Shown here: positions 4,250 to 30,194 of the stretch, one piece after another | Layout of the letters: the number at the start of each line of letters is the position of its first letter | Position numbering within the stretch: the first letter of the stretch is position 1 | Assembly: GCA_964403405.1 (NCBI GenBank) | Contig: CAYOGO010000001.1 | Location: 1-33,496 of the forward strand | Source of the DNA: an uncultured Lachnospiraceae bacterium | GTDB taxonomy: Bacteria; Bacillota; Clostridia; HGM11327 | Direction of reading: 5' to 3' | DNA: 33,496 nt | The notes under the pieces: model-generated | Told to the model about the DNA's origin: nothing | Seen by the model: the letters and a program-made list of their open reading frames with translations, nothing else | Database searches by the model: none | Program-made: the position numbers and the translations under genes

Positions 4250-4621
4250 TCAAGCATTATTAAGAATGTTTTTGAACTTTTCGATGTCTTCCTTTGTGTA
4301 TGTATAAGGGGTACTTATGTTATCGGAGATAAGTCGTCGTTTGCTCATTCTCTCTCCGCTAATAAGATTGTAGGCTCCGCCAATAATGGTGTCGCCTTCG
4401 ATATCGAAAAACACCGTCATATTTTCGATATCTTTATAGCCAGATAGATAATCTCGGTTCAATACATAAAAGAACTTTGATTCATCTTCTTTACTATGCA
4501 CCGAAGATTGTCGGTCATAGTAGACGGTTCCGTCTGGTGCTCGTCTTAAGTAACGAGCAAGTACATCGGGCGAATATTCGATAAGTGCTTGGGTAAATTT
4601 CTTACGCTGAGATATGTTCAT
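4250..4621 (-). CDS. hypothetical protein (123 aa)
   Basis: ORF whose ATG overlaps the integrase stop by 4 nt (coupled). Confidence 0.65.
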   Translation of the reverse strand: MNISQRKKFTQALIEYSPDVLARYLRRAPDGTVYYDRQSSVHSKEDESKFFYVLNRDYLSGYKDIENMTVFFDIEGDTIIGGAYNLISGERMSKRRLISDNISTPYTYTKEDIEKFKNILNNA

Positions 4622-5604
4622 TGGTCTGTTCCCTTCTCGGTGAGTAATTTTCCTATTGCGTCCAACCGCTCAAACACATCGTCAACTGTATATTGATTTC
4701 CTGCAATGATTTCGTTGACATTAGTTTTACCAAGAACAAAATCACTCACGGCAATTCTTGCTTTATCAAACATTATTTGATACGAGCCGAGATAACTCAT
4801 AGTCACTCTTTGATCGCTGTGATTAAGAAGTCCTTGAACCTTAGTAATTGCATTCATATCAATACAGGACTTGTCCACACAAGCGGCGATGTTTGCAAAG
4901 GACTTTCTCATCGTGTGGGATCCAATGACAAGCGGTAAGTTAAGAGCCTTACCTGCTTCTGATAAGATACGCCAACCACACTCTTCATACATTTTACCCT
5001 TGGTTTTACGGCTTGGAAAGAGAAAACCATTCAAATCAAACTCCCATTTGATTGAGTCCAAATACCTCGTCATAGCGTCAATTACAGACTCTGTAATGAG
5101 GATGTTGTTGAGTTTTCCTGTTTTCTGCTCGTAAATCTGAATTCTGGGCTTAAATGTTTTTTTGTCGTTGTCGATTATGTTACCAAACCGTAACGACAAA
5201 AGGTCTGATATACGCAACCCGAGGCTAACTCCGATAGTCCACATAGCCCAATCTCGAACTCTCCCAGCATCCAAATAATACTGTTGGATTGCTTTGAAAT
5301 CGTCATATGAACGGATTGCATCGGCGGCGTGAGCCTTGCGCTTACCGTCCGACTTGAAATCCGTATATGCGTTTGTGTCTATGGTGACCTCTCGTCGCTT
5401 TCGTCGTTTTTTAACAGGTTCTTGGGGTGCTTCTGGCAATTTCCCAAACCGTTCTTCAAGACGCTCTCTTATTCCCTGCTCGTACTCGAGTTGAATAGTG
5501 AGCCGTTTAATCTCTGCGTCTCTTTTTTTCAGTTCTCGATTCAATGCCTGAATCTGCATCAGATATACTTCTGGTGTTAGTACAACCTGAATATCCTCGT
5601 GCAT
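4618..5604 (-). CDS. int: site-specific tyrosine integrase
   Basis: GLRISDLLSL (Arg-I), GSHTMRKSFA (HxxR) and LLNHSDQRVTMSYLG (H...Y) are present. The ATG at 5604 lies 8 nt after GGAGAGGAG; the track's 5613 start is a GTG. Confidence 0.9.
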   Translation of the reverse strand: MHEDIQVVLTPEVYLMQIQALNRELKKRDAEIKRLTIQLEYEQGIRERLEERFGKLPEAPQEPVKKRRKRREVTIDTNAYTDFKSDGKRKAHAADAIRSYDDFKAIQQYYLDAGRVRDWAMWTIGVSLGLRISDLLSLRFGNIIDNDKKTFKPRIQIYEQKTGKLNNILITESVIDAMTRYLDSIKWEFDLNGFLFPSRKTKGKMYEECGWRILSEAGKALNLPLVIGSHTMRKSFANIAACVDKSCIDMNAITKVQGLLNHSDQRVTMSYLGSYQIMFDKARIAVSDFVLGKTNVNEIIAGNQYTVDDVFERLDAIGKLLTEKGTDQ

Positions 5605-5636
5605 TTTTATCACTCCTCTCCTATATTATACTACTT

Positions 5637-6969: not shown

Positions 6970-7749
6970 TCACATTCTGTCATATTTAACTGCCACAATT
7001 TTGCCGTCCACCTTTGCGAATTTTTCCGGGAATAAAAACTTCTGCTTATACCTTGTTTGTTGTTCTTCCGACAAACTAAGGATGTTGTTTTCACAATGAG
7101 AAACGATAAGCGTGATATGTTCCACGCCTCGTTCTCTTAGAGCTTTTGCCGCAGCCACAAAAGTTCCGCCGTAGCTACAAATGTCATCACGAATAACAAC
7201 TCTTTTTGTGCCTTCCTCGAACCCCATAATCTCATACGATTCGATACGACCTTCCGCGTTGCGCCGCTTGTTTCCGATAATTTCGGGAAGACCACATCTG
7301 GCATACTTTTTAGCCGCCCCGGCATCTGGGAACATAATCGCATCCGCTCCTTCTGTTGCCTCATAACTCAGAGCATCCTCATAGTTAATAAGACATCTAT
7401 CAAGCAGTGCGGTGCTAACGTCGGAATGAGGGTCGAGCACTACGACTATTGAAAAATTGAGAGAGTTGATAATCTCGGCAAATGATTTGAGCGTAAACAA
7501 TCGTCCGCTTACATTTCTATCCTGACGAGCGTGAGGGATGTACGGCATATTCAGAATGTTTTTGGCGTGAGGCATTCTGTTCTGAATATCTCTTGTTATA
7601 CAATACAAAGCAAACAACTCTGCGTCGTTGTCATACATCCAACAAATTTCGTTATGTTCGTAAATATACTGTCCCGAGATTGCTACACATTTAAGTGTTC
7701 CATCACCAAATGTTTCCTGTGGTATTTCAATTCCGTTAACCGTAATCAT
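6970..7749 (-). CDS. ribose-phosphate pyrophosphokinase (PRPP synthetase)-like enzyme
   Basis: The MPYIPHARQDR, VVLDPHS, FPDAGAAKKY and VVIRDDICSYGGTF motifs of the Prs family are present. At 259 aa it is short. Confidence 0.8.
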   Translation of the reverse strand: MITVNGIEIPQETFGDGTLKCVAISGQYIYEHNEICWMYDNDAELFALYCITRDIQNRMPHAKNILNMPYIPHARQDRNVSGRLFTLKSFAEIINSLNFSIVVVLDPHSDVSTALLDRCLINYEDALSYEATEGADAIMFPDAGAAKKYARCGLPEIIGNKRRNAEGRIESYEIMGFEEGTKRVVIRDDICSYGGTFVAAAKALRERGVEHITLIVSHCENNILSLSEEQQTRYKQKFLFPEKFAKVDGKIVAVKYDRM

Positions 7750-8289
7750 TTACTTCACCTCGATCTGGCACGTTCTCATTACTGTCAAAGCAGCTTCGTG
7801 TGTTTCTGGGGTCACACCCGCACAACAACTTGAATCAACCGCAATATCAAGTTCTGGGTAATGAGCTTTAAGTAGCATCGCGTTAGACACAACGCAGATG
7901 TCAGTACACAAGCCAACAAGTTCGACATACTCGACACAAGAGCCACGAATGATTTCTGGCAATGCTGTGCTGCCGAATGTGCGCTTTGTTAGTGTGCTCA
8001 GAGCAGAACAATGCTCACAAGACTTGTCAATCAATGTTGCCATAATATCCGCATTGATTTTATGTCCGTCGGTATCTTCGATACAGTGAGGAATCGGCAA
8101 AAACTTGCCCTCTCTCGTTTCCATATAGTCCGCACCGTGGGTGTCCATCGTGCAGATTATATCTCCGTCCCAACCAATGATCTTTTCAATCACTTTTGGA
8201 ACAATAGCTTGTGCCTCTTTTGTGCCAAGCGCTCCGTCGATAAAGTCATTTTGCATATCGACGATTATTAACAGTTTCTTATTTGTCAT
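7750..8289 (-). CDS. isochorismatase-family cysteine hydrolase, nicotinamidase (PncA)-like
   Basis: LLIIVDMQNDF (Asp), the DTHG...H metal-site-like stretch and VGLCTDICV (nucleophile Cys) are present. TAAATG junction with the Prs-like gene. Confidence 0.75.
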   Translation of the reverse strand: MTNKKLLIIVDMQNDFIDGALGTKEAQAIVPKVIEKIIGWDGDIICTMDTHGADYMETREGKFLPIPHCIEDTDGHKINADIMATLIDKSCEHCSALSTLTKRTFGSTALPEIIRGSCVEYVELVGLCTDICVVSNAMLLKAHYPELDIAVDSSCCAGVTPETHEAALTVMRTCQIEVK

Positions 8290-8303: not shown

Positions 8304-10538
8304 TTATTCGTCCTTGAACAACTTTCCCTCTTCTGTTTCAAAGAACATCTTTCTCAGCGAACAGATATCTTTAGGGATGATAACCTCTGGGTTTTCAACT
8401 TCAATATTATGAAGTGTTTTAACCCATCCGTAATACTGATTTGCAATCGCAGAAGTAAGCGCAGACGTCTTTCTTCCGTCGATATATCCCTTACGAATCG
8501 CCTCGTGAGAAATAGATCTCATAAACTTCCAGAAATTATAGTAATGGAGTTTGAGCTTCACCATATATCCGTTTGCGTCTTCAATAACAAATCCCTCGAT
8601 GTGTCTGTTCTCGTATTTGTAATCTTCGCTTGTTACAACATAGTACCAATCGAAGAATTCCTGCCAACTCTCAAGAACGTATGCCTTTTCTTTGTGCGTA
8701 AGACCGAAATCGTTCGCAACGGAACACATAGTCTCGTAGTCGTACTTTCGATATTTCATATCGTTATATACAATGTCGAGCAAGAACAGCTTGTCCTCGT
8801 CGTATTCGATGATATGAGGGTCGTTTGTCATATCTACGCACTCAAACACAAACGAAACATCGTGCTCTTTACAATACTCCTTAATTCTGTTAAGGGTTTC
8901 GTCGGTGTACTTTCTACGAAGCATATCCTTGAGCCATACGGCAAAATCTCCATCAGGACAAGATTTTGTAGTCACAAACAACGAGTCGTCGTCTGCTCCG
9001 TAAGACACAATGCCGAGATAACCATTCTCTTTCACATATGCTGCTGCCGGGAATGACAACTTATACTGAAGCATATCGAGCTTCGTCTCGGGGCGTTCGT
9101 TGATGTTAAAGAACTTATCATATGCTCTTGCGGCGACCTTTTGTCTTGGAATATCAATATACAGACCGCGAGCCTTCGTTGTCTGCTCGTCCCAAACCTT
9201 ATCGTAAAACGCCGTCTTGGTGAAATTGAACGAGGAAATGTTCCCGTACTGCTTTTCCTGCACATAACGATTCTGTCTGAGAGCAATAATCATATCTCCG
9301 ACCGTTTGCTCTCCCTTGGTAGCAGGCTCTGGACGCACTTCTCTTTCCTTAAACACATTGTTCTTGATTTCCACGACGGTATGAGTTCCGTCTGGCGTTA
9401 CCTGAACGCATCTAAGATGACCGCCAAACTCAACCTGCCCCTCAAGGTTAAACACTCTGTCATTTACTTTCGTAGGTAATTGCTTAGTATTTCTGTGTCC
9501 GTGGATCTGATAGCAATTATCTGGAGTGTTTTCAACAAAGGCGTTTGCAACAGCCTCAAAGTCGTTGTAATTACCAACACCTCTGATCATCTGCGAGGTT
9601 GCTACGGTTGTCATATTGTTGGGGATATTACTCAGTCCAGCGTGAGTAACAATGTATGTATTACCTGCATAGGTGTAGTAGGCGCATTGACCGAGCTTGC
9701 GATACAACTGCCGAACGAGTTTCTTATTGACCTGTGCATTATTAAGCTCTGTCTTCGTAACAAGCTCAAACTCCTTTGACGAACTGACACCGTCATTCGC
9801 CCATACCCATAGCCATCTCTCGTGATTACCCTCGAGCAACCACACATTAGGCTTTTGGTCAATACCCATCAAGAAGTTAATTACTTGCGCGTTCTCAACT
9901 CCTCTGTCGATATAGTCACCGCAGAAAATATACAGTTCGTCGTCTTTGAATCCGCCGTCCTGATCAAAATACTCTTTTAATGCGGTGTAACAACCGTGAA
10001 TATCGCCGATATGATGTACCTTCTTGTACTGCGATACGTCGAGAGGTTTCATCCAAATTCTGTCGAGCTCGTCGGGTTTAATGACTGTAATTCCCGACGG
10101 AATTTTCTGAGTCTGGAAACGAGCGTACATCTTGTCGATTGCATCGTCAGGCACTTGCTTGACTTCGGGACGCATACGATTGCGCTCCTTGACAACCTCG
10201 ATGGGGATATCAGTAAAGTCAACGCAATAAATGCGATACTTATATGAGTCGCAAAGCTCTTTGTAACGATTCATTTCGGATGTCTTGGAGTTCGTTGCGT
10301 CGATAACTGTGAACTCGCCGTTTTGCATACGAAGCTCCAATAGCTTAAACAGTGTGCTCCACACGACATTGTCGTTCATAGGATTGATGGCTTCTTTTCC
10401 AGACACAGTCATAATCGGGCTCGAACACTGCATTCTGATATCATCCGCCGACAGCGTATAATTCTTCAGTCCATTCTGTTCAATCCACGTTGACTTACCG
10501 CACCCGCAACTTCCTCTAAGTAATAAAAGAACTCTCAT
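8304..10538 (-). CDS. pnkp: trifunctional polynucleotide kinase / 2',3'-phosphatase / RNA ligase-type adenylyltransferase (bacterial Pnkp-like RNA repair enzyme)
   Basis: N-terminal P-loop GSCGCGKST. Central lambda-phosphatase motifs GDIHGC, GDYIDRG and GNHE. C-terminal nucleotidyltransferase motif I, KENG (VKENGYLG). Confidence 0.85.
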   Translation of the reverse strand: MRVLLLLRGSCGCGKSTWIEQNGLKNYTLSADDIRMQCSSPIMTVSGKEAINPMNDNVVWSTLFKLLELRMQNGEFTVIDATNSKTSEMNRYKELCDSYKYRIYCVDFTDIPIEVVKERNRMRPEVKQVPDDAIDKMYARFQTQKIPSGITVIKPDELDRIWMKPLDVSQYKKVHHIGDIHGCYTALKEYFDQDGGFKDDELYIFCGDYIDRGVENAQVINFLMGIDQKPNVWLLEGNHERWLWVWANDGVSSSKEFELVTKTELNNAQVNKKLVRQLYRKLGQCAYYTYAGNTYIVTHAGLSNIPNNMTTVATSQMIRGVGNYNDFEAVANAFVENTPDNCYQIHGHRNTKQLPTKVNDRVFNLEGQVEFGGHLRCVQVTPDGTHTVVEIKNNVFKEREVRPEPATKGEQTVGDMIIALRQNRYVQEKQYGNISSFNFTKTAFYDKVWDEQTTKARGLYIDIPRQKVAARAYDKFFNINERPETKLDMLQYKLSFPAAAYVKENGYLGIVSYGADDDSLFVTTKSCPDGDFAVWLKDMLRRKYTDETLNRIKEYCKEHDVSFVFECVDMTNDPHIIEYDEDKLFLLDIVYNDMKYRKYDYETMCSVANDFGLTHKEKAYVLESWQEFFDWYYVVTSEDYKYENRHIEGFVIEDANGYMVKLKLHYYNFWKFMRSISHEAIRKGYIDGRKTSALTSAIANQYYGWVKTLHNIEVENPEVIIPKDICSLRKMFFETEEGKLFKDE

Positions 10539-10733
10539 TTAACATCTCCTTGCCTCGACATCAGTGTCGTAAAATTTAATAGTTATTGTTTTAGTGCCTT
10601 TTGTGAACCTTCTTGAGCGGATTTCCGTTCTTATCATTGTATTACTTACGGTGTTACCATAAGCACCACGATCTGCTACGCAGAATTCCCCAGTGATAAT
10701 ATGTAATGTGGATTTATCTTCACAAAAAGCCAT

Positions 10734-10818
10734 TGGTGTCGCTAACAAGACTCGAACTTGTATGCATTTCTGCTCTGGTTTTTGAGACCAGTGTGTCTGC
10801 CATTTCCACCATAGCGAC
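10734..10818 (-). tRNA. tRNA-Leu (anticodon CAA), class II, CCA encoded
   Basis: Acceptor GTCGCTA/TAGCGAC; anticodon arm CTGGT-CTCAAAA-ACCAG; 13-nt variable arm; T arm ACAAG-TTCGAGT-CTTGT; discriminator A; 85 nt. Confidence 0.9.
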
Positions 10819-10979
10819 GTATTAAGCCATTCTCCAACTCTCCCAACCTTTCAGTTGCACAGGGCGTACTGTGTAGGGCGGCGCTTACCCTGAAGTTTCT
10901 ATCACCGCAGATTGTTGTATCCTCTGCAAGTACCGGCGCTTTTAGAGAATGGCGCGTTGGCTGATACAAACCAACGCAT
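10819..10979 (-). ncRNA. structured ~160-nt spacer between two tRNAs (unknown RNA)
   Basis: No credible ORF. A 9-bp long-range helix GCCATTCTC/GAGAATGGC encloses ~110 nt with internal hairpins, and a 7-bp hairpin GCGTTGG/CCAACGC sits beside it. Confidence 0.3.
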
Positions 10980-11068
10980 TGGCTGGGATGGCTGGATTTG
11001 AACCAGCGAGCAGCGTTGCTGACTTGTCGGAGTCAAAGTCCGATGCCTTACCGCTTGGCGACATCCCA
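10980..11068 (-). tRNA. tRNA-Gln(UUG)-like with an anomalous 19-nt variable arm
   Basis: U1:A72, G73 and the D arm TCGCCAAGCGGTAAGGCA match the E. coli tRNA-Gln. Anticodon arm TCGGA-CTTTGAC-TCCGA; T arm GCTGG-TTCAAAT-CCAGC. The variable region is CAAGTCAGCAACGCTGCTC (hairpin CAGC-AAC-GCTG). 89 nt. Confidence 0.7.
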
Positions 11069-11169
11069 TCGTTGCGCTTATTCTCTTACCCTTTTATATC
11101 GCGCACACCTGCTTATCCACGGCTATTGCCTGATACGAGTTTCTCAAGGGTACAGGTGGTGGTATTTCT

Positions 11170-12006
11170 TTATAAAAATCTTTCGATATAAACTCTATCC
11201 TGTGTAAACACTGGAATTTCTGCGTCAATCACCCATCGAGTTCTTGGATAGAAGCCATCCTTAATGTCTACATCGGGGTCTTGATATTCTTCTTTTACAC
11301 AACACACTCCGCGCTTAAACTCCGTAGGCATATCGTTAAAATTGATTGACTTCTCAGTCATTAACATCTCTTGGATGTCATTGCAGGACTTTCCGTGTAA
11401 TGCTTTGTGTGAGAAATTACACTGTCCGAGCATCTGAATGGCGTTTCGTGTTGCGTCCTGCTGTCTCCAGATAAAACAATTGACTACTTCTTCGACAGGA
11501 ATGTTAAAACATCGAGAGTCGAACATCGCAATTCCAATTTTTGAGAAGTACGAGTCATACAGTGCGTCGAACTCTTCTACGCTAAGTGGTTGCGAGCCAA
11601 TATCGCTTGTGTAGTAATCGTACCTACGATTGACTTCTTCCGCAAAGAACTTGTTAAACGCCATTGTAGCCATACTTGCAGAAACACTGCAAATTTTCTG
11701 AACATTGTTATCGAACCAAGCGTCTGTAGTAAGCGTATCGTAGTCCGTCAGTAGCAAGGTGATTTCGTCGGACTGAGTATATCCGAGCTTAACACACTGA
11801 ATATTCTCGCACAGATACTTCATAGTGTTGTTCATTGCGAAGTGAAAGATTTCGTCATATGGCTTCGCCAATCCTCTTGTAAAGGTGTGAAACGCCTTAC
11901 CATCAAGTCTTATAATCACGGGCATTCGACGCACGAGGTATGTCTTAGCTCGATTCTCATAATTGTTTTTCATACGGTCTCCGAGAGAGTCTTTCTTATT
12001 GCTCAT
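11170..12006 (-). CDS. tRNA-His guanylyltransferase (Thg1)-like 3'-5' polymerase (TLP)
   Basis: GDRMKNNYE...VIIRLDGKAFHTFTRGLAKPYD...GYTQSDEITLL is the Thg1-family signature. Confidence 0.85.
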   Translation of the reverse strand: MSNKKDSLGDRMKNNYENRAKTYLVRRMPVIIRLDGKAFHTFTRGLAKPYDEIFHFAMNNTMKYLCENIQCVKLGYTQSDEITLLLTDYDTLTTDAWFDNNVQKICSVSASMATMAFNKFFAEEVNRRYDYYTSDIGSQPLSVEEFDALYDSYFSKIGIAMFDSRCFNIPVEEVVNCFIWRQQDATRNAIQMLGQCNFSHKALHGKSCNDIQEMLMTEKSINFNDMPTEFKRGVCCVKEEYQDPDVDIKDGFYPRTRWVIDAEIPVFTQDRVYIERFL

Positions 12007-12033
12007 TATGTATTCAGTCCTTTCGTTTATTTA

Positions 12034-12108
12034 TGGTCGGGGCGACAGGAGTCAAACCTGCTTGACCTTGTTCCCAAAACAAGTGGGTAGTCGTTACCCT
12101 ACACCCCG
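12034..12108 (-). tRNA. tRNA-Pro (anticodon UGG), CCA encoded
   Basis: Acceptor CGGGGTG/CGCCCCG; anticodon arm CTTGT-TTTGGGA-ACAAG; T arm GCAGG-TTTGACT-CCTGT; 75 nt. Confidence 0.85.
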
Positions 12109-12170
12109 TTAATTGTTTTGAGCCGACTATTACGGGGCGCCCAGAGGGTGGACACGTTTGAATTCCACAT

Positions 12171-12253
12171 TGGTGCGGATAACAGGAGTTGAACCTGCAC
12201 GGGTAACCACCAGATCCTAAATCTGGCGTGTCTGCCAATTCCACCATATCCGC
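12171..12253 (-). tRNA. tRNA-Leu (anticodon UAG), class II, CCA encoded
   Basis: Acceptor GCGGATA/TATCCGC; anticodon arm CCAGA-TTTAGGA-TCTGG; long variable arm; T arm GCAGG-TTCAACT-CCTGT; 83 nt. Confidence 0.9.
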
Positions 12254-12749
12254 ATATAGAAGATGCATAAGTGACTCCGCTATCCGCCTCGCCCTTTGCC
12301 TTTACGCAAGACTACCATTCAATCACAACTCCATCTACGAGGACGAACCTTTCGTATGGTTTGTCGTGGTCTTTTCAGCTTTAATGATAGCAGGAGTGTT
12401 CGTGTTTCTCATCGTATACTACCAAGGTATTTGTCGTGCGGCTATGGCTTGGCGACTATTTCAGAGCCTACCTTCGGTTGTACATCGCAACCTAACCGCT
12501 ATTTCTTTATAGCCCGACGCTCTCGCGCCACCTTGGATTCCGACCGCCACTCACAGCCGTGATATGTTATCTCAATCGGGCTTTCTTGCAAATAAGAGGG
12601 CTCAAACCTCTGACTTATAGGTTTTACTCGTACAAGGAACTTCCCCTTGGAGTCTTAGCTACTACCCTAATCGTGTTCTCACTACACCATATTTGCGTAT
12701 CGCGGCTACGTGAGGCTTCCGTAGCCGTTTGTTTATTTAGTTACTGTCG
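12254..12749 (-). ncRNA. ~500-nt ORF-free, multi-helix region adjoining the tRNA cluster (candidate large structured RNA)
   Basis: Only short ORFs on the opposite strand. Minus-strand helices include CGGCTACG/CGTAGCCG (12703-12727); GCAAATA...TATTTGC closing a 110-nt tRNA-like unit with the T-arm-like AGAGG-TTTGAGC-CCTCT; AGCCCGA...TCGGGCT closing 72 nt; and GCGGTTA...TAGCCGC closing 62 nt. Confidence 0.35.
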
Positions 12750-12974
12750 TTATTGCCCGTAATAATCCTTCTCATACGACGTCTTCTTGTATACGCCAAA
12801 GAACACGCCAAGTCCTACGCCCACAAGAAGGACGAGGATGCCAAAAATAAATCTACCATTTTGTTTTCTCCTTAAAAAATGTTTAATTTCCGACTGGGAT
12901 AATTGTCGGAGTTTTCGTTGGCAAAAGCCTCCTTTGCCATTGTTGCATTGTATCCCACATAGAATACCCAGCAA
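12750..12974 (-). CDS. possible small membrane protein (start uncertain)
   Basis: The ORF carries a strong TM segment, FIFGILVLLVGVGLGVFFGV. The track's start is a TTG, and the internal AAGGAG is not followed by an in-frame ATG. Confidence 0.3.
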   Translation of the reverse strand: MLGILCGIQCNNGKGGFCQRKLRQLSQSEIKHFLRRKQNGRFIFGILVLLVGVGLGVFFGVYKKTSYEKDYYGQ

Positions 12975-13268
12975 GTTAAGCTTGAGAAATAAACAACTAA
13001 TAAAAACAACCAGCTAAGTTCGGGTCAATCTTAAAGATTTCGATTTATTGAACTTTGGCGAAAGTCCTTATATAGTCTTGCTTTCTTGGACATTCGGTTT
13101 GAGGGCGTTGATAAGTCGAGTCGATTGTGCTGCACACGGGTTTGTTATACAATAGTACCTGCCAGTTACGCGTCCTGCCGGGAATGTTCCCTCTCATCAT
13201 TTTGTTACTTTTGATATCACCAAAAGCGTTACCTTACGATAACAATATCGAATACAATGCTATTGTTT

Positions 13269-18430: not shown

Positions 18431-18619
18431 TTATTTGCGAGCGTCTGCAATTGACGCAATCATATTGGCGCTGACTATGCCAAAGTTGATTCCAAGCAAC
18501 CAAATATAAAGGTTGTCATTTGTTGCTGTAACGATGTTAAAAATACCAAGGATTGTAAGCAGTATCAGCCAAACGGCATCCAATATTACTCGATTCCATC
18601 TGTTCCAAAACTTTCTCAT
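18431..18619 (-). CDS. small two-TM membrane protein (62 aa)
   Basis: Two hydrophobic segments (ILDAVWLILLTILGIF and LLGINFGIVSANMIASI). The ATG overlaps the DGR RT stop by 4 nt. Confidence 0.55.
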   Translation of the reverse strand: MRKFWNRWNRVILDAVWLILLTILGIFNIVTATNDNLYIWLLGINFGIVSANMIASIADARK

Positions 18620-19659
18620 ATTGCCTCCTGTGCTGTATTATTAAATAGCTGCGATACGAATTCATCCATACTTTCCAATAGTCTGTGACAGTTTCCGTGA
18701 GATGCGTGATTTTTCCAAGGCTCATACTTCTCTGTGAACGATTCCATCGTCATCTTCCCATTGATTACAAGTCTTGCGTACTTTCTCAATCTTTTCTTGA
18801 TTTGTCGTTTGTTTTCGCCAGTTAATCGACGAATGATAACACCGTCTTCGGTAATGTATGTATGAAATCCAAGAAATCTCAACCCTTTGCGTATCGACAC
18901 GATTTCCGTTTTATTGTTCAAAGTCAGGTGTAAAGTATCGAGATATTCTTCAATACGCTTGAGGCAATACTTCAAATATTCTTTGTCTTCGGATATTAGA
19001 TAAAAGTCATCCATATATCTTCCGTAATACTTACACCCGAGCTCTTCGGTAATAAAGATGTCAAGCCCCGCCAGATAAATCAAAGCGAAAACCTGACTGC
19101 ACTGATTACCAAGCGGCAGACCGTTCCCGTCTGTGCTGTCTATAAACAGATCGCACAACCACTGGATCTCCTCGTCCGTGAAATACTGACGAATGATTGC
19201 TTTCATCACATCGTGATCAATGCTATAAAAGAACTTCGTTATATCACACTTGAGAATATATCCATCGCATCCGTGTTCTTGGTAGAACAAACGCATATTC
19301 TCGGAAAGCCGGTCTAACCCAAACAAGGTTCCTTTCCCAATCTGTCCTGCGTAATTGTCTTTAATGAAAACTTCTTTCATTCTCGGCAATAATACGTAGT
19401 CACATAGGCAGTGCTGTAAAACCTTGTCGCGGAAAGAACCTGATTTGATGTTTCGCGGTTTGGGTTCAGTGACAACAAATTCTGCGTAAGGAGATATTTG
19501 GTATGTATGTTCAATCAACTGTCGCCTCATAACGCATATGTTTTCAAGTGCCATAGCGTCAAATTTTATAGCGCCTTTCTTTTTTCCCTTTCCCCTCATA
19601 GACTTCTTGTATGACTTATACAAGTTGCCGAAATCTGTTACAATCTGAAAATCTCCCAT
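18616..19659 (-). CDS. diversity-generating retroelement (DGR) reverse transcriptase
   Basis: RT motifs include the DGR-specific LPLGNQCSQ ([I/L]GxxxSQ) and YMDDF. The gene lies immediately downstream of the TR. Confidence 0.92.
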   Translation of the reverse strand: MGDFQIVTDFGNLYKSYKKSMRGKGKKKGAIKFDAMALENICVMRRQLIEHTYQISPYAEFVVTEPKPRNIKSGSFRDKVLQHCLCDYVLLPRMKEVFIKDNYAGQIGKGTLFGLDRLSENMRLFYQEHGCDGYILKCDITKFFYSIDHDVMKAIIRQYFTDEEIQWLCDLFIDSTDGNGLPLGNQCSQVFALIYLAGLDIFITEELGCKYYGRYMDDFYLISEDKEYLKYCLKRIEEYLDTLHLTLNNKTEIVSIRKGLRFLGFHTYITEDGVIIRRLTGENKRQIKKRLRKYARLVINGKMTMESFTEKYEPWKNHASHGNCHRLLESMDEFVSQLFNNTAQEAI

Positions 19660-19881: not shown

Positions 19882-20244
19882 TCAGGTCTTCCGCCAAGCA
19901 AGTGTCATATTTTTGATGTCGTGAACCAAGCCAGTCCACGTCTCGCTTGTGGCATAACTAATGAGGTGAGCGTGAAGACTATACTTCACAAGACTCATAA
20001 GCTTATTACACTTTGTAATTGCGCTTGTCTGTAACTCAAACCTCTTTGCTTTGTGTTGTGGCGTTTCAGCTCTATATCCGTTAGCATCAAGAATATCACT
20101 ATGGATATCAAGTGCGTATTCTTGGAGCCGAGTAGCCAATCTTTGAAATTTAACGGGATAATGACTTCGGTTGGTGGTTATGTCAAAAATCGAGAAGTAA
20201 AGTGCCTCGCTCTTTCCCGCAATTTCAAATGTTGTTTCTGGCAT
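19882..20244 (-). CDS. avd: DGR accessory variability determinant (Avd-like four-helix-bundle protein)
   Basis: 120-aa helical basic protein located between the target gene and the TR, which is the canonical position and size. Confidence 0.7.
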   Translation of the reverse strand: MPETTFEIAGKSEALYFSIFDITTNRSHYPVKFQRLATRLQEYALDIHSDILDANGYRAETPQHKAKRFELQTSAITKCNKLMSLVKYSLHAHLISYATSETWTGLVHDIKNMTLAWRKT

Positions 20245-20250
20245 AGTGTG

Positions 20251-20853
20251 TTAAATCAAGAGAGAAGATTTCAAGATACAAAACGGGCGAACGCCGCCGC
20301 TGCCAATGTCGCAGGCGTTCCAGTCCAGAACGCCATTCGAGCGGACGCAGCAAACGTCACGAGCGTATCCCTCTACATCTGCACTTACTCTTGTCGCCGT
20401 ATGCCACCAACTTCCGTATGCGGGCAAGAATTTTCTGTACGCTCTGTATCTTTCTGTCGTCAGAATAGACACATAGTCTTCACAAACCTTTACTCCCGTT
20501 CCGTCATCAGCCGTCAGGTCTGTCTGATGCTTCACGATATTTTCCTTACCTACAGCACCTGCGATTTCCTTATAGAAATCGTTATTCAAGTAGGCGCGGA
20601 TATCGCTGTTGAGATAATCGCCCGTCTTTCCGAACGCCATCTTCTTAACGAAATCCTTGGCGATAACCGCCGTAACACCATTCAGATGCTGAAGAACAAT
20701 GTATTCTCTTTTGCCGAGCTTAATAATCGCTCCGGGCTCGTGCTCTCCAAGAGCTTTACATCCCTCGGGAGACAATGTAATAATAACAGTACCGTCATTC
20801 TCGCTCGTTGTTACCCTTACGTTGGGTGCGTTGTTTACAATTTCAACTCTCAT
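20251..20853 (-). CDS. DGR target protein 1 (C-type-lectin-fold variable C-terminus)
   Basis: ATG at 20853 after AGGAGAAAATCA. The C-terminus ...WWHTATRVS...NGVLDWNACDIGSGGVRPFCIL contains VR1. Confidence 0.85.
   Translation of the reverse strand: MRVEIVNNAPNVRVTTSENDGTVIITLSPEGCKALGEHEPGAIIKLGKREYIVLQHLNGVTAVIAKDFVKKMAFGKTGDYLNSDIRAYLNNDFYKEIAGAVGKENIVKHQTDLTADDGTGVKVCEDYVSILTTERYRAYRKFLPAYGSWWHTATRVSADVEGYARDVCCVRSNGVLDWNACDIGSGGVRPFCILKSSLLI
20282..20364 (-). repeat. DGR variable repeat VR1
   Basis: 83-nt match to the TR with 9 A-site substitutions. It ends 31 nt before the stop codon. A GC-rich IMH-like GGCGGCGTTCGCCCG lies at its 3' end. Confidence 0.9.
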
Positions 20854-20881
20854 TGATTTTCTCCTGTTATGTAAAAGATTT

Positions 20882-21418
20882 TTAAGAAACACGGAGTACA
20901 CCTCCGTTCACTTCCGTATATCCATCTTCGCTTAGTAACTCCCCAAGCTTTTCGTAGTCTATACATTCAAGAAGCGTTTCCTTGCTGAACATTCCATCGT
21001 CTGCGAATTGCTCAGCAAGTTCGGTCAAAGTAGTTCTTGGATAGAAATCGACATCTCTGTCCTCGACCTTGTCGATTGCATCTTCCAACGAATATCCTTC
21101 GCTATCTATTAACGCTACCATCGCGTCATATTCATAGTCCTGTAAGTCCTCAATGCGTTCAACCAAGTCGCTCGCACTGTATGGATTCTCACAATCGGAC
21201 TGAGTTAAAATCTCGGAACTAAAGTCCAAAACCTCATATGTGTCTGACGGACTATCTCCAGCCATCAAACTGTCAAAGTCGTACTCTGCGTCTGGATCAA
21301 TTCCCATTTCTTCTAACATCTCGTTGAATTCGTTTTCCGTAAACGGTAAATCAATCCACCTCGGTGCGACCTGACGATTACTGCTTCCTATGAGCAGTTT
21401 GGAATAAGTATTTATCAT
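20882..21418 (-). CDS. ardA: ArdA-like antirestriction (DNA-mimic) protein
   Basis: APRWIDLPFTENEFNEMLEEMGID...EY and the C-terminal CIDYEKLGELLSEDGYTEVNGGVLRV parallel Tn916 ArdA (GAWFTFPIDFEEVKEKIGL...; NYIDYQAYGRDL...HGIFEIV). Highly acidic. ATG at 21418 after GAGAGGTG. Confidence 0.6.
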   Translation of the reverse strand: MINTYSKLLIGSSNRQVAPRWIDLPFTENEFNEMLEEMGIDPDAEYDFDSLMAGDSPSDTYEVLDFSSEILTQSDCENPYSASDLVERIEDLQDYEYDAMVALIDSEGYSLEDAIDKVEDRDVDFYPRTTLTELAEQFADDGMFSKETLLECIDYEKLGELLSEDGYTEVNGGVLRVS

Positions 21419-21420
21419 AT

Positions 21421-21951
21421 TCACCTCTCGTCTTCCGCCCATTCAACTATCAGCTCTTCCAAAAAAGCCACATCTTCTTGTGGAATTGGTCGCGCCAACC
21501 ATTGTGTGCCGTATATAAATCCTCTATCGTCTTCCAGACCGATTTCTTTAAGGTACGCCCTTGCGGCAGAGTAATCATATTTATTTTGTTTCTTCCATTC
21601 TTTCAGAGCCAACTCTTGGACTTGTGTTCCAGCAGTTAAATCGTTAAGATGGTACGCTCTCCATATTCTAACGAGTCTATCGAAAGATGCAAGTTCAAGT
21701 TCTGGTACTCTTTCTCGATACATCTCGACTATTCGCTCTATGCACTGATCGCCGTATCTGCCTTTTCGTGGTGAAGCACATATACTAAGAACTGGTATAT
21801 TGTCTGCCTGCAAAGTGTCATACCGAATCACATTCTTTTCTGTCAAGCTTATTTCAAATTGCAAACATCTTGTGCTCTTTCTGAAGTATTTGCCGAGCTT
21901 CGCAAACTTTCCGCACGGCATTAACCGTAGATATATCGTATGTTCCTTCAT
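21421..21951 (-). CDS. hypothetical protein (176 aa)
   Basis: ATG at 21951 lies 5 nt after GGAGG. Confidence 0.65.
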   Translation of the reverse strand: MKEHTIYLRLMPCGKFAKLGKYFRKSTRCLQFEISLTEKNVIRYDTLQADNIPVLSICASPRKGRYGDQCIERIVEMYRERVPELELASFDRLVRIWRAYHLNDLTAGTQVQELALKEWKKQNKYDYSAARAYLKEIGLEDDRGFIYGTQWLARPIPQEDVAFLEELIVEWAEDER

Positions 21952-23569: not shown

Positions 23570-24712
23570 TTACGGATTAAGCAAAGCCTTCGCCGTAGCT
23601 AAAACATCTTTATTGAATTTTGTGGAGTACGCATTGAGAATTTTGTCAATCTCCTCGCCCTCTACCATCTTGTAGTAGGCAACGAGACCAAGGAAATGCT
23701 GTACGTCCTCGAGTTCCCAAGCAACGCCTTTCGCATCGTCAGTCATAAACTGGAAGATCATTGCTTTGAAGACCTTTTTCTTTTCGTGACCGATTGTAAT
23801 CTTGTTCTCTTTGTTGAGCATAACTCCCAAATTCCAGTTTCTTCCCGCCGAAGAACCATATCTGGTCTTCTCTGCGTTAAGCGTAAACGGAGCTGAGAAC
23901 TGATTGAAAATGTCGGTTATCTTGTTCTGCACGGCCGTCCAATGGAAACTGAACTGGCTGGAAATCAACATATCGTCAGCGTATCTTGTATAACAAAGAT
24001 GCGGACTGTATTCACGACACATCTTTGCAATCGCGTGATCGATGGGAATCATCATCATATTCGTCAGCATTGGACTGGTGGGCGTTCCCTGCGGCAAACC
24101 GCCATTCAGGAAACAAAGAGATAATGCTTTTTGAAGCACCTCTCTGTATCCGTAATCATAATTTACGAACACACAAAACGGATAAAGCTCGCAGAGCATA
24201 TCCATCAAAAACTTCTCTGTAGTGGACGGAAAGAAACCCTGTGCATCGAGTTTTAAGAACCAACGGGAGTTGTTTGTCTGGTGACGCTTTACGCTGTCAA
24301 TCGTGCTTCTACCGTGAACATACGCAAAAGCGGTAGTATGATAGGATGCGAAAAATTTCTTTTCGAGAATTTCTTTCAGCTCTCTCAAAGCCTTCATCAG
24401 CTCGTCTTGGGGAGCATCTATCTTACGCAAACCGCCACTTCTTTTAGGAATTTTGAAACTTCTATAAAGCACAGACTTATCTTCCGTATTGATAAGACCT
24501 GCGTACTTTTCGTTAAAAGCCACGAGAGCTTCATACATACCACGGAAGTTTGTCTTTTCGATCAAATTGGGGTTAATGTTGTTTGTGAGCCACGTCCTTG
24601 TGTCTCTGGTGTCTTTCGCCGGCATAAAATCCGACTCACTACATCCGTTCAGGATATCGTCAAACGTGAGCTGATACGTTCTCGGTTCGACATTTACGGT
24701 AATATACGGCAT
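23570..24712 (-). CDS. retron-type reverse transcriptase (380 aa)
   Basis: Block-by-block similarity to the Ec86 RT: FKIPKRSGGLRKIDAP, KLDAQGFFPS, GLPQGTPTSPMLTN, YTRYADDMLIS and LGVMLNKENKITIGHEKKKVFKAMI (the VTG-region equivalent). ATG at 24712 after AAAGGAAC. Confidence 0.85.
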   Translation of the reverse strand: MPYITVNVEPRTYQLTFDDILNGCSESDFMPAKDTRDTRTWLTNNINPNLIEKTNFRGMYEALVAFNEKYAGLINTEDKSVLYRSFKIPKRSGGLRKIDAPQDELMKALRELKEILEKKFFASYHTTAFAYVHGRSTIDSVKRHQTNNSRWFLKLDAQGFFPSTTEKFLMDMLCELYPFCVFVNYDYGYREVLQKALSLCFLNGGLPQGTPTSPMLTNMMMIPIDHAIAKMCREYSPHLCYTRYADDMLISSQFSFHWTAVQNKITDIFNQFSAPFTLNAEKTRYGSSAGRNWNLGVMLNKENKITIGHEKKKVFKAMIFQFMTDDAKGVAWELEDVQHFLGLVAYYKMVEGEEIDKILNAYSTKFNKDVLATAKALLNP

Positions 24713-24725
24713 ATTGTTCCTTTCT

Positions 24726-25054
24726 TTCTGTAATCGCGAGGTACAGATGACTGTCTGAAGACTCACCGCGGTCGGCGATGCATCTTCTGCGTCGTCATCG
24801 CAAGGTTAACAGGCGGTAGTCGGGTGGGCAAAGCTGTAAGGAAAACGGGTGTGATTTGGTAATGACGGGTTGGTTTCAAGTAAATTTAATATTAACTTGA
24901 CACTTATCCGCACGAAATGGCTCCGAGCACCTCGTTACTCCTGATGGAGGCGTCACGCCTTCTGTCCCACTGGGGCTGCCATCTCTTGACATTTTGGTAC
25001 TTTCGGTAAAACCCAAAGCCTTGTGTCCGAAGAAACAAGAATAACATTACAGAA
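24726..25054 (-). ncRNA. candidate RT-associated ncRNA (retron msr-msd-like)
   Basis: 329-nt region free of ORFs >=60 aa between rnhA and the RT. It is bounded by the 9-nt inverted repeat TTCTGTAAT (25054-25046) / ATTACAGAA (24734-24726), with a G right after the 5' arm. A UUCG-capped hairpin lies at ~25020-25040, and there are several GC hairpins. Confidence 0.4.
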
Positions 25055-25059
25055 TTGTT

Positions 25060-25500
25060 TTATTTTTGATTGTTGGTGTAAGCCTCTACGGCAAGTTGGT
25101 CACAGCGCTCGTTTTCTGGGTGACCATTATGTCCTTTGATCCAAACAAATTTGACTTTGTGAACCTTGAGTAGCGATAAGAGTTCTTCCCATAAGTCTGA
25201 GTTCTGGGCAGGCTTACGGTTAGACTTTCTCCAACCATTTGCCTTCCAGCTTTCAGCCCAACCTTTCTCAATGCCGTTTACAACGTACTGAGAATCGGTT
25301 GTCAAAACAACCTCGCACGGCTCTCTTAATGCATACAGTGCTTGAATAGCAGCCGTCAACTCCATTCGGTTGTTCGTCGTGTCTGGGTTAAACCCCGATA
25401 ATTCTTTGATCGCGGAGCCGTACCTTAATACGGCTCCCCAACCACCACTTCCGGGATTGCCAGAGCACGCCCCGTCTGTGAATATTTCGACACGCTTCAT
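25060..25500 (-). CDS. rnhA: ribonuclease HI
   Basis: [25 protein letters not shown]...TTNNRMEL...TDSQYV...[16 protein letters not shown] is near-collinear with E. coli RNase HI, with the DEDD residues present. ATG at 25500 after GAGGAA. Confidence 0.95.
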
Positions 25501-25519
25501 ATATGTTTTCCTCAACGAA

Positions 25520-26206
25520 TTACATCGTCATAATATCCATAGCGAACGGATTGCAGACAACGATCTTCTGCAATTCGCCGCCACGAATGAGGTTCATAAA
25601 GTTTGTAACGCCGAGAGCACAAATTACCCTAACTGTAGGGGCGACACCGAGCTCTGTGCCGCAGGCTGTTACAGGAGTAGCCTCGTGTGCTTCGTCGTGA
25701 GAGAAAGCCATCGACTTGATAAGATTGTCCACCTGACGCATATCGCCCCAGTCTGCGGCGTAATGCTGTGCATCTTCAAGACGCGTTCTGAAATCAAACA
25801 CGGCTTTGATTGCCTTGTTCATACGATTCTTCTCGCAGATTTCACGTCTCAAGTCGATATTATCAACGGCAAGGAACACGTAACCGTTGAGCTTCTGATC
25901 TGTGTATCCCTGCCCGAACACCTCTATGGTGCTTTCCGCTTCGGGGTTGATATCACAGATGATTTTCTTAACTGCTTCAACCTTAGGTTTCTTGACGTCG
26001 CTCTGTACGAACATCTGATTTGCAAGGTTGTGCGGCTCGACAATGTCGAAATCATAAAGAACGAATTTCGTCACGCCGAGTCTTGCGAGATTTTCTGCGA
26101 CAGTAGATCCCACGCTGCCACAACCGATGATGTGGCACTTGCCACGTACGTTGACCGGATCAAAGTATTCGATAGACTTTGTTAAATCCATTAGTGCCAC
26201 CCCCAT
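25520..26206 (-). CDS. minimal ThiF/MoeB-type E1-like adenylyltransferase (~223-228 aa)
   Basis: [38 protein letters not shown] is a Rossmann/ATP loop of the E1 superfamily. The start is at 26206 or the TAATG-coupled 26191. Confidence 0.8.
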
Positions 26207-29441: not shown

Positions 29442-30194
29442 TCAACTGTGAGCAGTCAAGACACAAGATTTCAAGATACAAAACGGGCGAACGCCGCCGC
29501 CGTCACAGTCGCAGCCGTTCCAGTCCAGAACGCCAAGCGAGCCGACGTAGCAAACGTTACGAGCGTATCCGCTTTCTTCGATAGCGCTCTTTCGTGTGGC
29601 AGTCCACCACCATCCGTCTGAACGAATGTGTTTGCTGTACTTTCGATAACTGTCAACCGTCATCAGAGAGATATAGTCTTCGACAAATCCGTAATCAGCT
29701 CTGCCGTCCTCTGGCGTTGTGTCAACGCGATGCTTGATGATATTCTCTGCTCCAACAACCGCAGCAAGCTCGTTGTAATATTCTTCGTTTAGATATCGAC
29801 GAACCCTGCTCGTTTCGTAATCTGCTTCGTCTCCGAAAGCCATAAAGTTTACAAAATCATAGTGTAGCAAAAGCACGTTCTCTCCGATGTAATCAAGCAC
29901 GATATACTTCCATCTGCCAAGTCTAACTTGACTGCCAACGGTAGGCAAACCATCTGCCGTACCAGATACGTTATACGAATTCATATCAATGATTTTTTGT
30001 GCAGGAACTTCTGCGGGAATAAAGTTCTGGTAGATACACCCTGTACTCTCTCCGGGCATACCTGCAAACAACGGACACCCTGCACAGCCCGTAGTTCTTC
30101 CCCAACAAAACTCTTGGATGCTATTTATCGCATCCGCTACATTTTGCGGCAACCCGATTGCCTCGGGTGTAATAGTGGTTTCTCTTTCTGACAT
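29442..30194 (-). CDS. DGR target protein 2 (remote target, 250 aa)
   Basis: The C-terminus ...WWWTATRKS...LGVLDWNGCDCDGGGVRPFCIL is paralogous to target 1 and carries VR2. GAAGGGAG SD. Confidence 0.85.
   Translation of the reverse strand: MSERETTITPEAIGLPQNVADAINSIQEFCWGRTTGCAGCPLFAGMPGESTGCIYQNFIPAEVPAQKIIDMNSYNVSGTADGLPTVGSQVRLGRWKYIVLDYIGENVLLLHYDFVNFMAFGDEADYETSRVRRYLNEEYYNELAAVVGAENIIKHRVDTTPEDGRADYGFVEDYISLMTVDSYRKYSKHIRSDGWWWTATRKSAIEESGYARNVCYVGSLGVLDWNGCDCDGGGVRPFCILKSCVLTAHS
29482..29564 (-). repeat. DGR variable repeat VR2
   Basis: 83-nt match to the TR with 10 substitutions, all at TR adenines (minus strand). It shares the same IMH-like 3' end and downstream TTTTGTATCTTGAAATCTT as VR1. 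Confidence 0.9.

Follow-up and report, generated by a model that had tools for sequence, protein, structure and literature searches.

The 33.5-kb stretch at the start of contig CAYOGO010000001.1 (hereafter the window; all coordinates are positions within it) carries two long minus-strand open reading frames (ORFs), at 8304-10538 and 11170-12006, whose predicted products are a 744-aa fusion enzyme of RNA end repair and a 278-aa Thg1-like protein (TLP). Four tRNA genes are interleaved with them, and the gene order in the sense of transcription is tRNA-Leu(UAG), tRNA-Pro(UGG), TLP, tRNA-Gln(UUG), tRNA-Leu(CAA), the gene for the 744-aa fusion (i.e. the Pnkp-like gene), an isochorismatase-like gene and a phosphoribosyl pyrophosphate (PRPP) synthetase-like gene (Table 1). 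The minus strand holds every confidently assigned gene of the window. An earlier note on this DNA had proposed that a Pnkp without Hen1, paired with a TLP and spare tRNAs, forms a phage kit for mending tRNAs damaged by host defences. The locus is best explained as a compact form of the RNA/tRNA-maintenance part of a mosaic region for accessory and counter-defence functions in a large phage (~110-160 kb) of the human gut. Its tight packing is attributable to local deletion and rearrangement in this mosaic region.

Healing and sealing domains of the fusion enzyme

The 744-aa protein is a fused 5'-kinase, lambda-type metallophosphoesterase and ATP-dependent RNA ligase with full motif sets, and the kinase/lambda-phosphatase-type/KENG-ligase fusion described by the earlier note was confirmed in its coordinates, its three Pfam domains and its motifs. 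The kinase was detected as AAA_33 (aa 4-142, E 9e-19; Pfam) with a P-loop, GSCGCGKS, at residues 9-16, and its closest PDB match was the kinase domain of Clostridium thermocellum Pnkp (CthPnkp; 4gp6, E 3e-6). The second domain matched Metallophos (aa 173-307, E 1e-12; Pfam) and exhibited sequence likeness to lambda phosphatase (1g5b, E ~1e-8) and also to the PP1 family. Its motifs are complete (i.e. GDIHG at 178-182, GDYIDRG at 207-213, GNHE at 237-240, H299 and H346/H348 of HGH), and the domain is presumed to heal 2',3'-cyclic-phosphate and 3'-phosphate ends.

The ligase domain was assigned to RNA_lig_T4_1 (PF09511; aa 455-667, E 6e-42), with 144 bits against a cut-off of 28.3 and an alignment covering profile positions 1-227 of 227. 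The nucleotidyltransferase motifs are present, i.e. motif I K503-E-N-G, motif III E566, motif IV E648-G-F-V and motif V K661-x-K663. Sequence matches in the PDB were obtained for fungal Trl1-LIG (E 2e-11) and T4 Rnl1 (E 1e-5); the CthPnkp ligase chain was not found among the PDB sequence matches for the ligase, even at E<=10. The fold of aa 399-744 was examined using an AlphaFold2 model built on 31 homologues (mean predicted local distance difference test (pLDDT) score 87, predicted TM-score (pTM) 0.85), which was compared with the PDB by Foldseek, TM-scores being normalised to the query (TMq). The predicted model aligned with Trl1-LIG at a TMq of 0.71-0.75 over 370-380 columns (identity 20-22%), with T4 Rnl1 at 0.55 (root mean square deviation 7.6-11.7 A), with Rnl3 at ~0.5 and with Rnl2 and Rnl5 at ~0.42. 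No Rnl4 structure (Pnkp-C/Hen1-N) was among the 50 Foldseek matches listed, all of which had E<=0.001. TIGR04075, the NCBIfam equivalog for bacterial Pnkp, gave 74.2 bits against a 750-bit cut-off, and only aa 4-383 were aligned, to profile positions 10-405 of 851, leaving 405-851 unmatched.

What defines a clade of RNA ligases is the set of modules added to its nucleotidyltransferase core, and only the Rnl4 clade is Hen1-dependent (PMC6379707). By its sequence and modelled fold, the fusion appears to consist of bacterial-Pnkp-like healing domains joined to a Trl1/Rnl1-type sealing domain. 'Pnkp without Hen1' was thus a misleading description, as only the kinase-phosphatase half is Pnkp-like (74 vs 750 bits for TIGR04075) and the ligase is of the Trl1/Rnl1 type. 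No Hen1 or methyltransferase gene was detected among the window ORFs scanned, some small ORFs lying outside the scan, and this absence is expected and unremarkable because the ligase is not of the Hen1-dependent Rnl4 type.

The ligase also contains K671-F-M-R674 (KxxR), which is invariant in the 31 homologues and aligns, in a low-confidence part of the HMMER alignment, with RQWR of C. glabrata Trl1. The RxxR that follows motif V in Trl1 has been proposed to bind the 2'-PO4 (PMC6379707). Conceivably, this Trl1-like ligase, in which KxxR is conserved, may seal 2'-PO4 ends like eukaryotic tRNA ligases; if true, this would link the ligase to the neighbouring NAD+ and Macro genes of relatives. Tpt1/KptA was not found in the window.

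The bacterial Pnkp/Hen1 system (C. thermocellum, TIGR04075) has the same order of kinase, metallophosphoesterase and ligase as the fusion, whose kinase is closest to that of CthPnkp and whose phosphatase motifs are common to both; the ligase of that system is, however, of the Rnl4 type needing Hen1-N, to which the fusion's ligase has neither a sequence nor a fold match. The presumed functional analogue is the T4 Pnkp plus Rnl1 pathway, which counters PrrC and is likewise phage-encoded, combining a 5'-kinase, removal of 3'- and 2',3'-phosphates and PF09511-type ATP-dependent sealing. This pathway differs in that the T4 phosphatase is of the DxDxT type (haloacid dehalogenase, HAD) whereas that of the fusion is a dinuclear metallophosphoesterase, and in that the window enzyme fuses all three activities in one 744-aa polypeptide. 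The fusion's ligase is also closer to Trl1-LIG than to T4 Rnl1 (TMq of 0.71-0.75 vs 0.55), and PrrC as the opponent has no support for the window phage. Fungal and plant Trl1 (LIG, the 'Rnl6' clade; PMC6379707) matched aa 399-744 best, in sequence as well as in fold, the likeness spanning the N-terminal sub-domain resembling that of Rnl1, nucleotidyltransferase motifs I, III, IV and V and, in the predicted model, a large part of the helical C-terminal region. Trl1 differs in its domain order, LIG-KIN-CPD as compared to KIN-phosphatase-LIG in the fusion, and its 2H cyclic phosphodiesterase (CPD) is replaced by the metallophosphoesterase, no 2H/CPD domain being present in the fusion.

The Thg1-like protein and the tRNA genes

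The 278-aa protein, which the earlier note had placed in the Thg1 family, matched Pfam Thg1 (PF04446) at E 2e-29, with 102.6 bits for a gathering score of 29.2, and also phrog_4717 (E 6e-93). Its match to the crystal structure of the Bacillus thuringiensis TLP (BtTLP; 4kgk) had an E-value of 4e-72, as compared to only 1e-5 to 1e-10 for Thg1. Residues E17, R33, D35, D80 and E81 align with E12, R28, D30, D75 and E76 of BtTLP, which have been shown or argued to be catalytic (PMC3701042). The active site is intact, with the catalytic carboxylates (i.e. D35, D80 and E81) all present, and the family assignment stands. In eukaryal-type Thg1, which adds G-1 opposite A73 without a template, HINNLYN is the recognition element for the anticodon (GUG). 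Neither HINNLYN nor HINN occurs in the window protein, where the equivalent stretch is IWRQQDATRNAIQ, and because this Thg1-type anticodon-recognition motif is missing the protein is a TLP rather than a genuine tRNA-His guanylyltransferase. In vitro, BtTLP prefers the refilling of 5'-truncated tRNAs over G-1 addition, and TLPs add G-1 opposite C73 (PMC3061083). By analogy, the expected activity of the window protein is templated 3'-5' addition to 5'-truncated tRNAs. The catalytic residues of BtTLP are thus conserved in the window protein, which lacks the anticodon-recognition motif as TLPs do; it differs from BtTLP in being phage-encoded and in having an insertion of ~33 aa (aa 125-157).

In one relative, L118 (L-numbers denote loci compared with the window, the wider relatives being taken from IMG/VR), the TLP is encoded by two overlapping ORFs, at 146-541 (131 aa) and 541-969 (142 aa), which are split exactly at the site of the 33-aa insertion. 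A true TLP in two pieces, a pseudogene and a frameshift in the assembly are all possible explanations.

The four interleaved tRNAs read by the earlier note were recovered by both ARAGORN and Rfam (gathering score 29; bit scores 45-60). All four encode CCA and have fully paired acceptor stems (e.g. GCGGATA/TATCCGC in tRNA-Leu(UAG)). A role in tRNA 5'-editing of the mitochondrial type, which involves mismatches in the first three acceptor pairs, was rejected as the acceptor stems of all five window tRNAs are perfectly paired and CCA is encoded. A gap of 27 nt separates the 3' end of tRNA-Pro(UGG) from the start codon of the TLP that follows, and this tRNA occupies the same position directly upstream of the TLP in L170-L172. 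L125, a 97% relative, likewise has tRNA-Leu(CAA) immediately upstream of its Pnkp-like gene. CUA accounts for 6% of Leu codons in the window (window codon usage by itself being uninformative), and because its use is low, codon supply is not an obvious explanation for tRNA-Leu(UAG). An E-value scan with Rfam of the ~1-kb ORF-poor segment at 12254-13268 and of the inter-tRNA spacers detected no RNA genes beyond the four tRNAs.

The tRNA-Gln(UUG) was aptly called 'Gln-UUG-like' by the earlier note, as it bears an extra hairpin in its variable region. The body is that of a canonical tRNA-Gln (i.e. U1-A72, G2-C71, G3-C70, G10, G73 and CCA), and the variable region of ~19 nt, with a 3-4 bp hairpin, contains ~14 extra nt as compared to the 5 nt of 75-nt homologues (e.g. 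L014). To our knowledge, no class-II-like tRNA-Gln has been described before, and this long-variable-arm form is considered mildly new. Long-arm tRNA-Gln genes were also observed in relatives (L118 4200-4289, L119/L120 15453-15544, L170 16314-16408 and L171 14073-14167), with stems that differ in a compensating manner (AGCA/TGCT, CAGC/GCTG, GGC/GCC, AGC-GAAA-GCT and GAG/CTC), and a pattern scan located them in 43 further IMG/VR contigs (L127-L169), mostly of ~45-kb gut phages. ARAGORN also called a class-II tRNA of 92 nt at L118 2670-2761, the anticodon loop of which has 8 nt ('anticodon ataa'); this could be a frameshift-suppressor-like tRNA or an artefact.

Table 1. Coordinates of the tRNA, TLP, fusion-enzyme and downstream genes, in order of transcription
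Feature	Coordinates	Strand	Evidence and remarks
tRNA-Leu (UAG), class II, CCA encoded	12171..12253	-	ARAGORN; Rfam 57.9 bits
tRNA-Pro (UGG), CCA encoded	12034..12108	-	ARAGORN; Rfam 45.4 bits
TLP, 278 aa, BtTLP-type templated 3'-5' RNA polymerase (predicted)	11170..12006	-	Pfam Thg1, phrog_4717, PDB 4kgk
tRNA-Gln (UUG), 89 nt, CCA encoded	10980..11068	-	ARAGORN; Rfam 59.5 bits
tRNA-Leu (CAA), class II, CCA encoded	10734..10818	-	ARAGORN; Rfam 56.5 bits
Fusion protein, domain 1 (aa 1-165), P-loop polynucleotide 5'-OH kinase	10044..10538	-	Pfam AAA_33
Fusion protein, domain 2 (aa 166-398), dinuclear metallophosphoesterase, lambda-phosphatase/CthPnkp type	9345..10043	-	Pfam Metallophos
Fusion protein, domain 3 (aa 399-744), ATP-dependent RNA ligase, Rnl1/Trl1 (PF09511) type, with helical C-terminal module	8304..9344	-	Pfam
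Isochorismatase/nicotinamidase-like gene	7750-8289	-	Pfam, PHROG, NCBIfam; directly downstream of the Pnkp-like gene
Ribose-phosphate pyrophosphokinase (PRPP-synthetase)-like gene	6970-7749	-	Pfam, PHROG, NCBIfam

Distribution, linkage and genomic surroundings

Both the fusion and the TLP belong to established phage families. The fusion is matched end to end by phrog_8238 ('RNA ligase'; aa 1-734, E 4e-223), and by tblastn it is present, with an identity of 28-47%, in 130 records of cultured phages, where its annotation is RNA ligase, polynucleotide kinase or phosphatase. By host genus, these records include 94 for Staphylococcus (Twort-like and Sextaecvirus), 18 for Lactobacillus, five for Bacillus (SPbeta-like), five for Fusobacterium and four for Brochothrix. 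The phrog_8238 phages (i.e. Twort-like/Herelleviridae, SPbeta-like, Lactobacillus, Brochothrix and Fusobacterium phages) exhibit the same three-domain architecture as the window protein but are mostly without a TLP. A metagenome protein search produced at least 4,514 homologues of the fusion at E<=1e-10, some perhaps being single-domain matches, and the top 120 all share the three-domain architecture. It is considered mildly new that a phage family widely annotated as 'RNA ligase' or 'Pnkp' carries a Trl1-like, and not an Rnl4, ligase. For the TLP family, phrog_4717, there are 159 phage records, the hosts including Bacillus, Prevotella, Caulobacter, Mycobacterium and Xanthomonas, and one genome paper called the gene 'highly unusual' (PMC3601020). 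A megablast of the region against cultured phages found no close DNA relative, the sole match being an 80-bp tRNA.

Linkage of the two genes was examined in 80 TLP-centred loci (44-76% identity, ±8 kb) and 31 Pnkp-like loci, and genes in phages Fnu1, PMBT8 and Bc431v3 were located by local tblastn. The relative with the 97% identical Pnkp-like gene, L125, has the order tRNA-Leu(CAA), Pnkp-like, isochorismatase, Prs-like, NAMPT and NAD synthase, its contig ending just upstream. In L118 (Pnkp-like 90%), the TLP is followed by tRNAs including the long-arm tRNA-Gln, ~5.5 kb of small ORFs and then the Pnkp-like gene, the two genes being 9 kb apart. L170-L172 (TLP 85-89%, Pnkp-like 83-84%) exhibit the reversed order, i.e. 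Pnkp-like, x, Band_7, tRNA-Leu(UAG), tRNA-Pro(UGG) and TLP, with 3.6 kb between the two. Both genes lie within 10 kb of each other in L118, L170-L172, L083, L091, L099/L100 and L106, and a TLP occurs 0.8-4 kb downstream in five of the 31 wider Pnkp-like loci (IMG/VR). The Fusobacterium phages Fnu1 and FNU2 also carry both genes, 12-14 kb apart. Linkage is therefore recurrent in at least two unrelated phage lineages, and is neither obligatory nor syntenically fixed.

Other end-healing genes were found beside the TLP. By ORF clustering, 14 of the 80 loci have a standalone metallophosphoesterase downstream of the TLP at 1-1,400 bp, with a gap of <=3 bp in seven, and a ~300-aa fusion of an AAA_33 kinase with an HD phosphohydrolase (kinase-HD) is present on the same strand at 2-7.5 kb in 39 (e.g. 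L052 5062-5967). Gut-phage contigs in which a lambda-type metallophosphoesterase comes right after the TLP include L003-L015, L024 and L025 (e.g. L011 8829-9623). One or other of these neighbours occurs in 48/80 TLP loci, and no RNA ligase was detected in these loci by homology to the window's ligase. This arrangement suggests that the TLP and the healing enzymes form a module working without sealing. Most of the conserved TLP neighbours in L052 and L011 gave no Pfam match. In the jumbo phage XacN1, the TLP is 4.2 kb from an RNA ligase unrelated to that of the window, and a Macro-domain gene occurs in the same 40-kb region. These neighbours match, and extend to phages, the Thg1-PNK-(Macro)-(RNA ligase) neighbourhoods of PMC2904730, and the recurrent flanking of gut-phage TLPs by metallophosphoesterase or kinase-HD healing genes is regarded as mildly new.

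The pairing itself, of which the earlier note knew no characterised case, is not a new idea. An association of Thg1, polynucleotide kinase (PNK), RNA ligase and Macro genes and a role in RNA repair were predicted from bacterial gene neighbourhoods in 2010 (Anantharaman, Iyer & Aravind; PMC2904730), and Thg1 was listed among the RNA-repair enzymes of (jumbo) phages in a 2021 inventory (Iyer et al.; PMC7824862). The window locus shares with these predictions the concept of a kinase making the 5'-phosphate used by Thg1/TLP and RNA ligase, in the setting of RNA repair during conflict. The predictions concerned bacterial operons with a standalone PNK and sporadic jumbo-phage Thg1, whereas the window has a trifunctional Trl1-like fusion in a ~110-160-kb gut phage, embedded in tRNA genes. 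Both families and their conceptual association were thus already known, and the locus is a new, unusually compact member.

The genes around this locus were also examined. The isochorismatase-like and PRPP-synthetase-like genes are followed in relatives (L125 2933-6514, L119/L120 18200-22181 and L171 18307-20852) by NAMPT, NAD synthase and sometimes Macro; the window is without NAMPT and NadE and has a phrog_1987 ORF in their place, with an integrase (4618-5613) further downstream. By comparison of gene content, the window pair appears to be what is left of an NAD+ salvage cluster which these relatives have in full, and this is probably, by analogy, an NAD+ salvage/reconstitution cluster of the kind used by phages against NAD-depleting defences. 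An ArdA-like (anti-restriction) protein is encoded at 20882-21442. An apparent diversity-generating retroelement comprises a reverse transcriptase (phrog_1423, E 6e-110) at 18616-19659 (-) and Avd at 19882-20244 (-), with phrog_9958 proteins at 20251-20901 and 29442-30194 (-) as candidate targets. A second reverse-transcriptase-like gene, at 23570-24766 (-), adjoins RNase H (25060-25515) and a 228-aa ORF (stretch 23570-26206). This trio is found upstream of the Pnkp-like gene in L119-L124, where the window DNA over the 228-aa ORF aligns to a stretch with a ThiF-family gene and part of its upstream gene; the trio may have an anti-defence function or be retron-like. The ArdA-like protein, the diversity-generating retroelement, the second reverse transcriptase with RNase H and the NAD+ salvage cluster support a setting of conflict. 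Neighbours of this counter-defence kind (an ArdA-like protein, NAD+ salvage genes, Macro and reverse transcriptases) occur across the window and its relatives.

Interpretation of the locus

The reading favoured here, with moderate confidence, is that the fusion and the TLP are independent, complementary tRNA-repair modules within a mosaic counter-defence region and not an obligate two-gene system. The CthPnkp-like kinase would phosphorylate 5'-OH ends, the lambda-phosphatase-like domain would remove 2',3'-cyclic or 3' phosphates and the Trl1/Rnl1-type ligase would reseal the break, the most plausible site being a tRNA anticodon loop after cutting by host ribotoxins, which is the job of T4 Pnkp and Rnl1; the 5'-OH and 2',3'>p ends so healed would be those left by metal-independent ribotoxins. 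The TLP would refill missing 5' nucleotides of the tRNA acceptor stem using the 3' strand as template, and the tRNA genes would be ordinary phage-supplied tRNAs, co-transcribed with the repair genes and topping up depleted pools. Any cooperation of the two enzymes may lie in the fusion's kinase, which could feed both ligase and TLP; since both need a 5'-monophosphate, a 5'-kinase would be their one shared requirement. The analysis establishes the domain identities, the catalytic motifs, the fold class of the ligase and the synteny statistics; the tRNA substrates, the counter-defence purpose and any cooperation of the enzymes are inferred. Of the repair kit proposed by the earlier note, the tRNA-repair or counter-defence role persists as the most economical reading; nothing ties the kit to a particular nuclease.

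Several observations weigh against this interpretation. Co-transcription is unproven, because scans for sigma-70 promoters (16 vs 13.1±3.4 in shuffled sequence) and terminators (9 vs 5.1±2.5 in shuffled sequence) were both at background. The trifunctional enzyme was found in 0/80 TLP-centred loci, and the TLP is absent within 10 kb of the Pnkp-like gene in L119-L124 (Pnkp-like 85%). Judged from the host-genus tallies, ~126 of the 130 cultured records with the fusion enzyme seem to be without a TLP; Staphylococcus and Lactobacillus are not named in the TLP tally, and one Staphylococcus phage was present among the 60 listed TLP matches. Conversely, ~44 Bacillus phage records have a TLP without the fusion enzyme, and PMBT8 has a TLP and no Pnkp-like gene in the 67 kb examined. 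As order and spacing shift even among relatives with 83-90% identical Pnkp-like genes, the pairing is not a conserved operon, so that the Pnkp-TLP co-occurrence drawn attention to by the earlier note holds as a recurrence within 10 kb in related phages and not as a fixed unit. A few related clades of phages account for many of the 48 healing-enzyme loci, and distances of 2-8 kb in large phages transcribed from one strand are weak evidence of a functional link; the same TLP regions also hold LigA, RecJ and other nucleic-acid enzymes. A literature search found no biochemical study of either phage family. We know of no bacterial or phage TLP with a demonstrated physiological substrate, nor of any nuclease shown to make 5'-truncated tRNAs in phage defence.

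A real though minor chance is assigned to coincidental adjacency in a recombination hot spot, with unrelated accessory genes brought together by deletion of intervening small ORFs and movement of the Pnkp block, and with the TLP serving phage tRNA biogenesis (i.e. G-1 addition to a phage tRNA-His without encoded G-1, or correction of RNase P miscleavage) and not damage repair. This is consistent with gene order that flips and spacing that ranges from 0.6 to 9 kb among relatives of 83-97% identity, with integrases and toxin genes nearby, and with a conserved unit in the clade, tRNA-Leu(UAG)-tRNA-Pro(UGG)-TLP in L170-L172, that links the TLP to tRNAs and not to Pnkp. Two loci with both genes, in which the TLP is 2 kb downstream of the Pnkp-like gene, encode a phage tRNA-His(GUG) (L099 50-121 and L100 193-264) with C73, a T at position -1 and a CCA end that is not encoded, so that G-1 must be added post-transcriptionally, and TLPs catalyse this addition opposite C73 in vitro (PMC3061083). 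The idea does not hold in general: there is no tRNA-His in the window or in the TLP-adjacent tRNA arrays of L013, L014, L066, L076 and L078, and XacN1 has a TLP yet encodes G-1 in its tRNA-His (L173 34132-34207). Fnu1 and PMBT8, both with a TLP, have no tRNA genes in the first 118 kb of 131 kb and in 67 of 88 kb, respectively, and therefore no phage tRNA in these stretches for the TLP to act on; ~65/80 TLP loci have no tRNA within 8 kb, only ~15 having any. Moreover, the phosphoesterase and kinase healing enzymes repeatedly found beside the TLP are not needed for tRNA-His maturation. A dedicated G-1 adder for phage tRNA-His is not supported as a general role, on the basis of the window, XacN1, Fnu1 and PMBT8, while L099 and L100 fit it. 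Obligate coupling, which is the strong form of the earlier note's kit, with the two genes selected as a unit, is improbable. Here a host nuclease would cut the acceptor 5' strand to leave 5'-OH and 2',3'>p, the fusion kinase would phosphorylate this end and the TLP would polymerise 3'-5', the same fusion enzyme separately resealing anticodon-loop cuts. A polynucleotide kinase provides the 5'-monophosphate or 5'-triphosphate on which the TLP depends (PMC2904730), both genes lie within 10 kb in at least nine related loci and recur in an unrelated Fusobacterium phage genus, and a kinase-HD or metallophosphoesterase gene flanks the TLP in the 48 loci described above. Each gene is nonetheless dispensable to the other, as in the 94 Staphylococcus and 18 Lactobacillus fusion records and the Bacillus TLP-only records, there is no fixed order or spacing, and in Fnu1 the two genes are on opposite strands, 14 kb apart.

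The fusion could also be a general nucleic-acid end-repair enzyme, acting on toxin-cut mRNA or rRNA or on DNA nicks with 3'-phosphate and 5'-OH ends, with the tRNAs present for codon supply only; this is quite improbable. In vitro, kinase and phosphatase modules of the CthPnkp type act on DNA as well as RNA ends, the C-terminal module responsible for the tRNA specificity of T4 Rnl1 is not clearly common to the fusion (TMq only 0.55), and PemK/MazF-type toxin genes are near in relatives. However, the closest characterised ligases, Trl1 and T4 Rnl1, are both tRNA ligases, the fusion gene is in or beside tRNA clusters in the window, L098, L101, L118, L125 and L170-L172, and codon supply is no obvious reason for tRNA-Leu(UAG) given the 6% of Leu codons that are CUA.

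A bolder extension of the favoured reading, which is rather unlikely, is that phage TLPs and end-healing enzymes constitute a pathway of counter-defence in which an acceptor stem cleaved by host immune nucleases has its 5' strand rebuilt. For the healing step, the TLP would be partnered by the fused kinase-phosphatase-ligase in the window and by the standalone metallophosphoesterase or kinase-HD in relatives. If true, bacterial-type Thg1-like proteins would thereby gain their first physiological role, and the reading would imply an as yet unrecognised class of acceptor-stem-targeting defence nucleases in gut bacteria.

The fusion enzyme is noteworthy in itself, being abundant, including in Twort-like staphylococcal phages of the therapeutic type, and combining Pnkp-type healing with a eukaryote-like Trl1-type ligase. 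For annotation, this family should not be named 'Pnkp' in the sense of Pnkp/Hen1, and the TLP should not be named 'tRNA-His guanylyltransferase'. The 5'-repair activity of bacterial-type TLPs has been known in vitro since 2010. If the functional reading given here is true, this phage clade, together with the cultured Fusobacterium Latrobevirus phages carrying both genes, would provide a natural system in which the in vivo role of these proteins can be studied.

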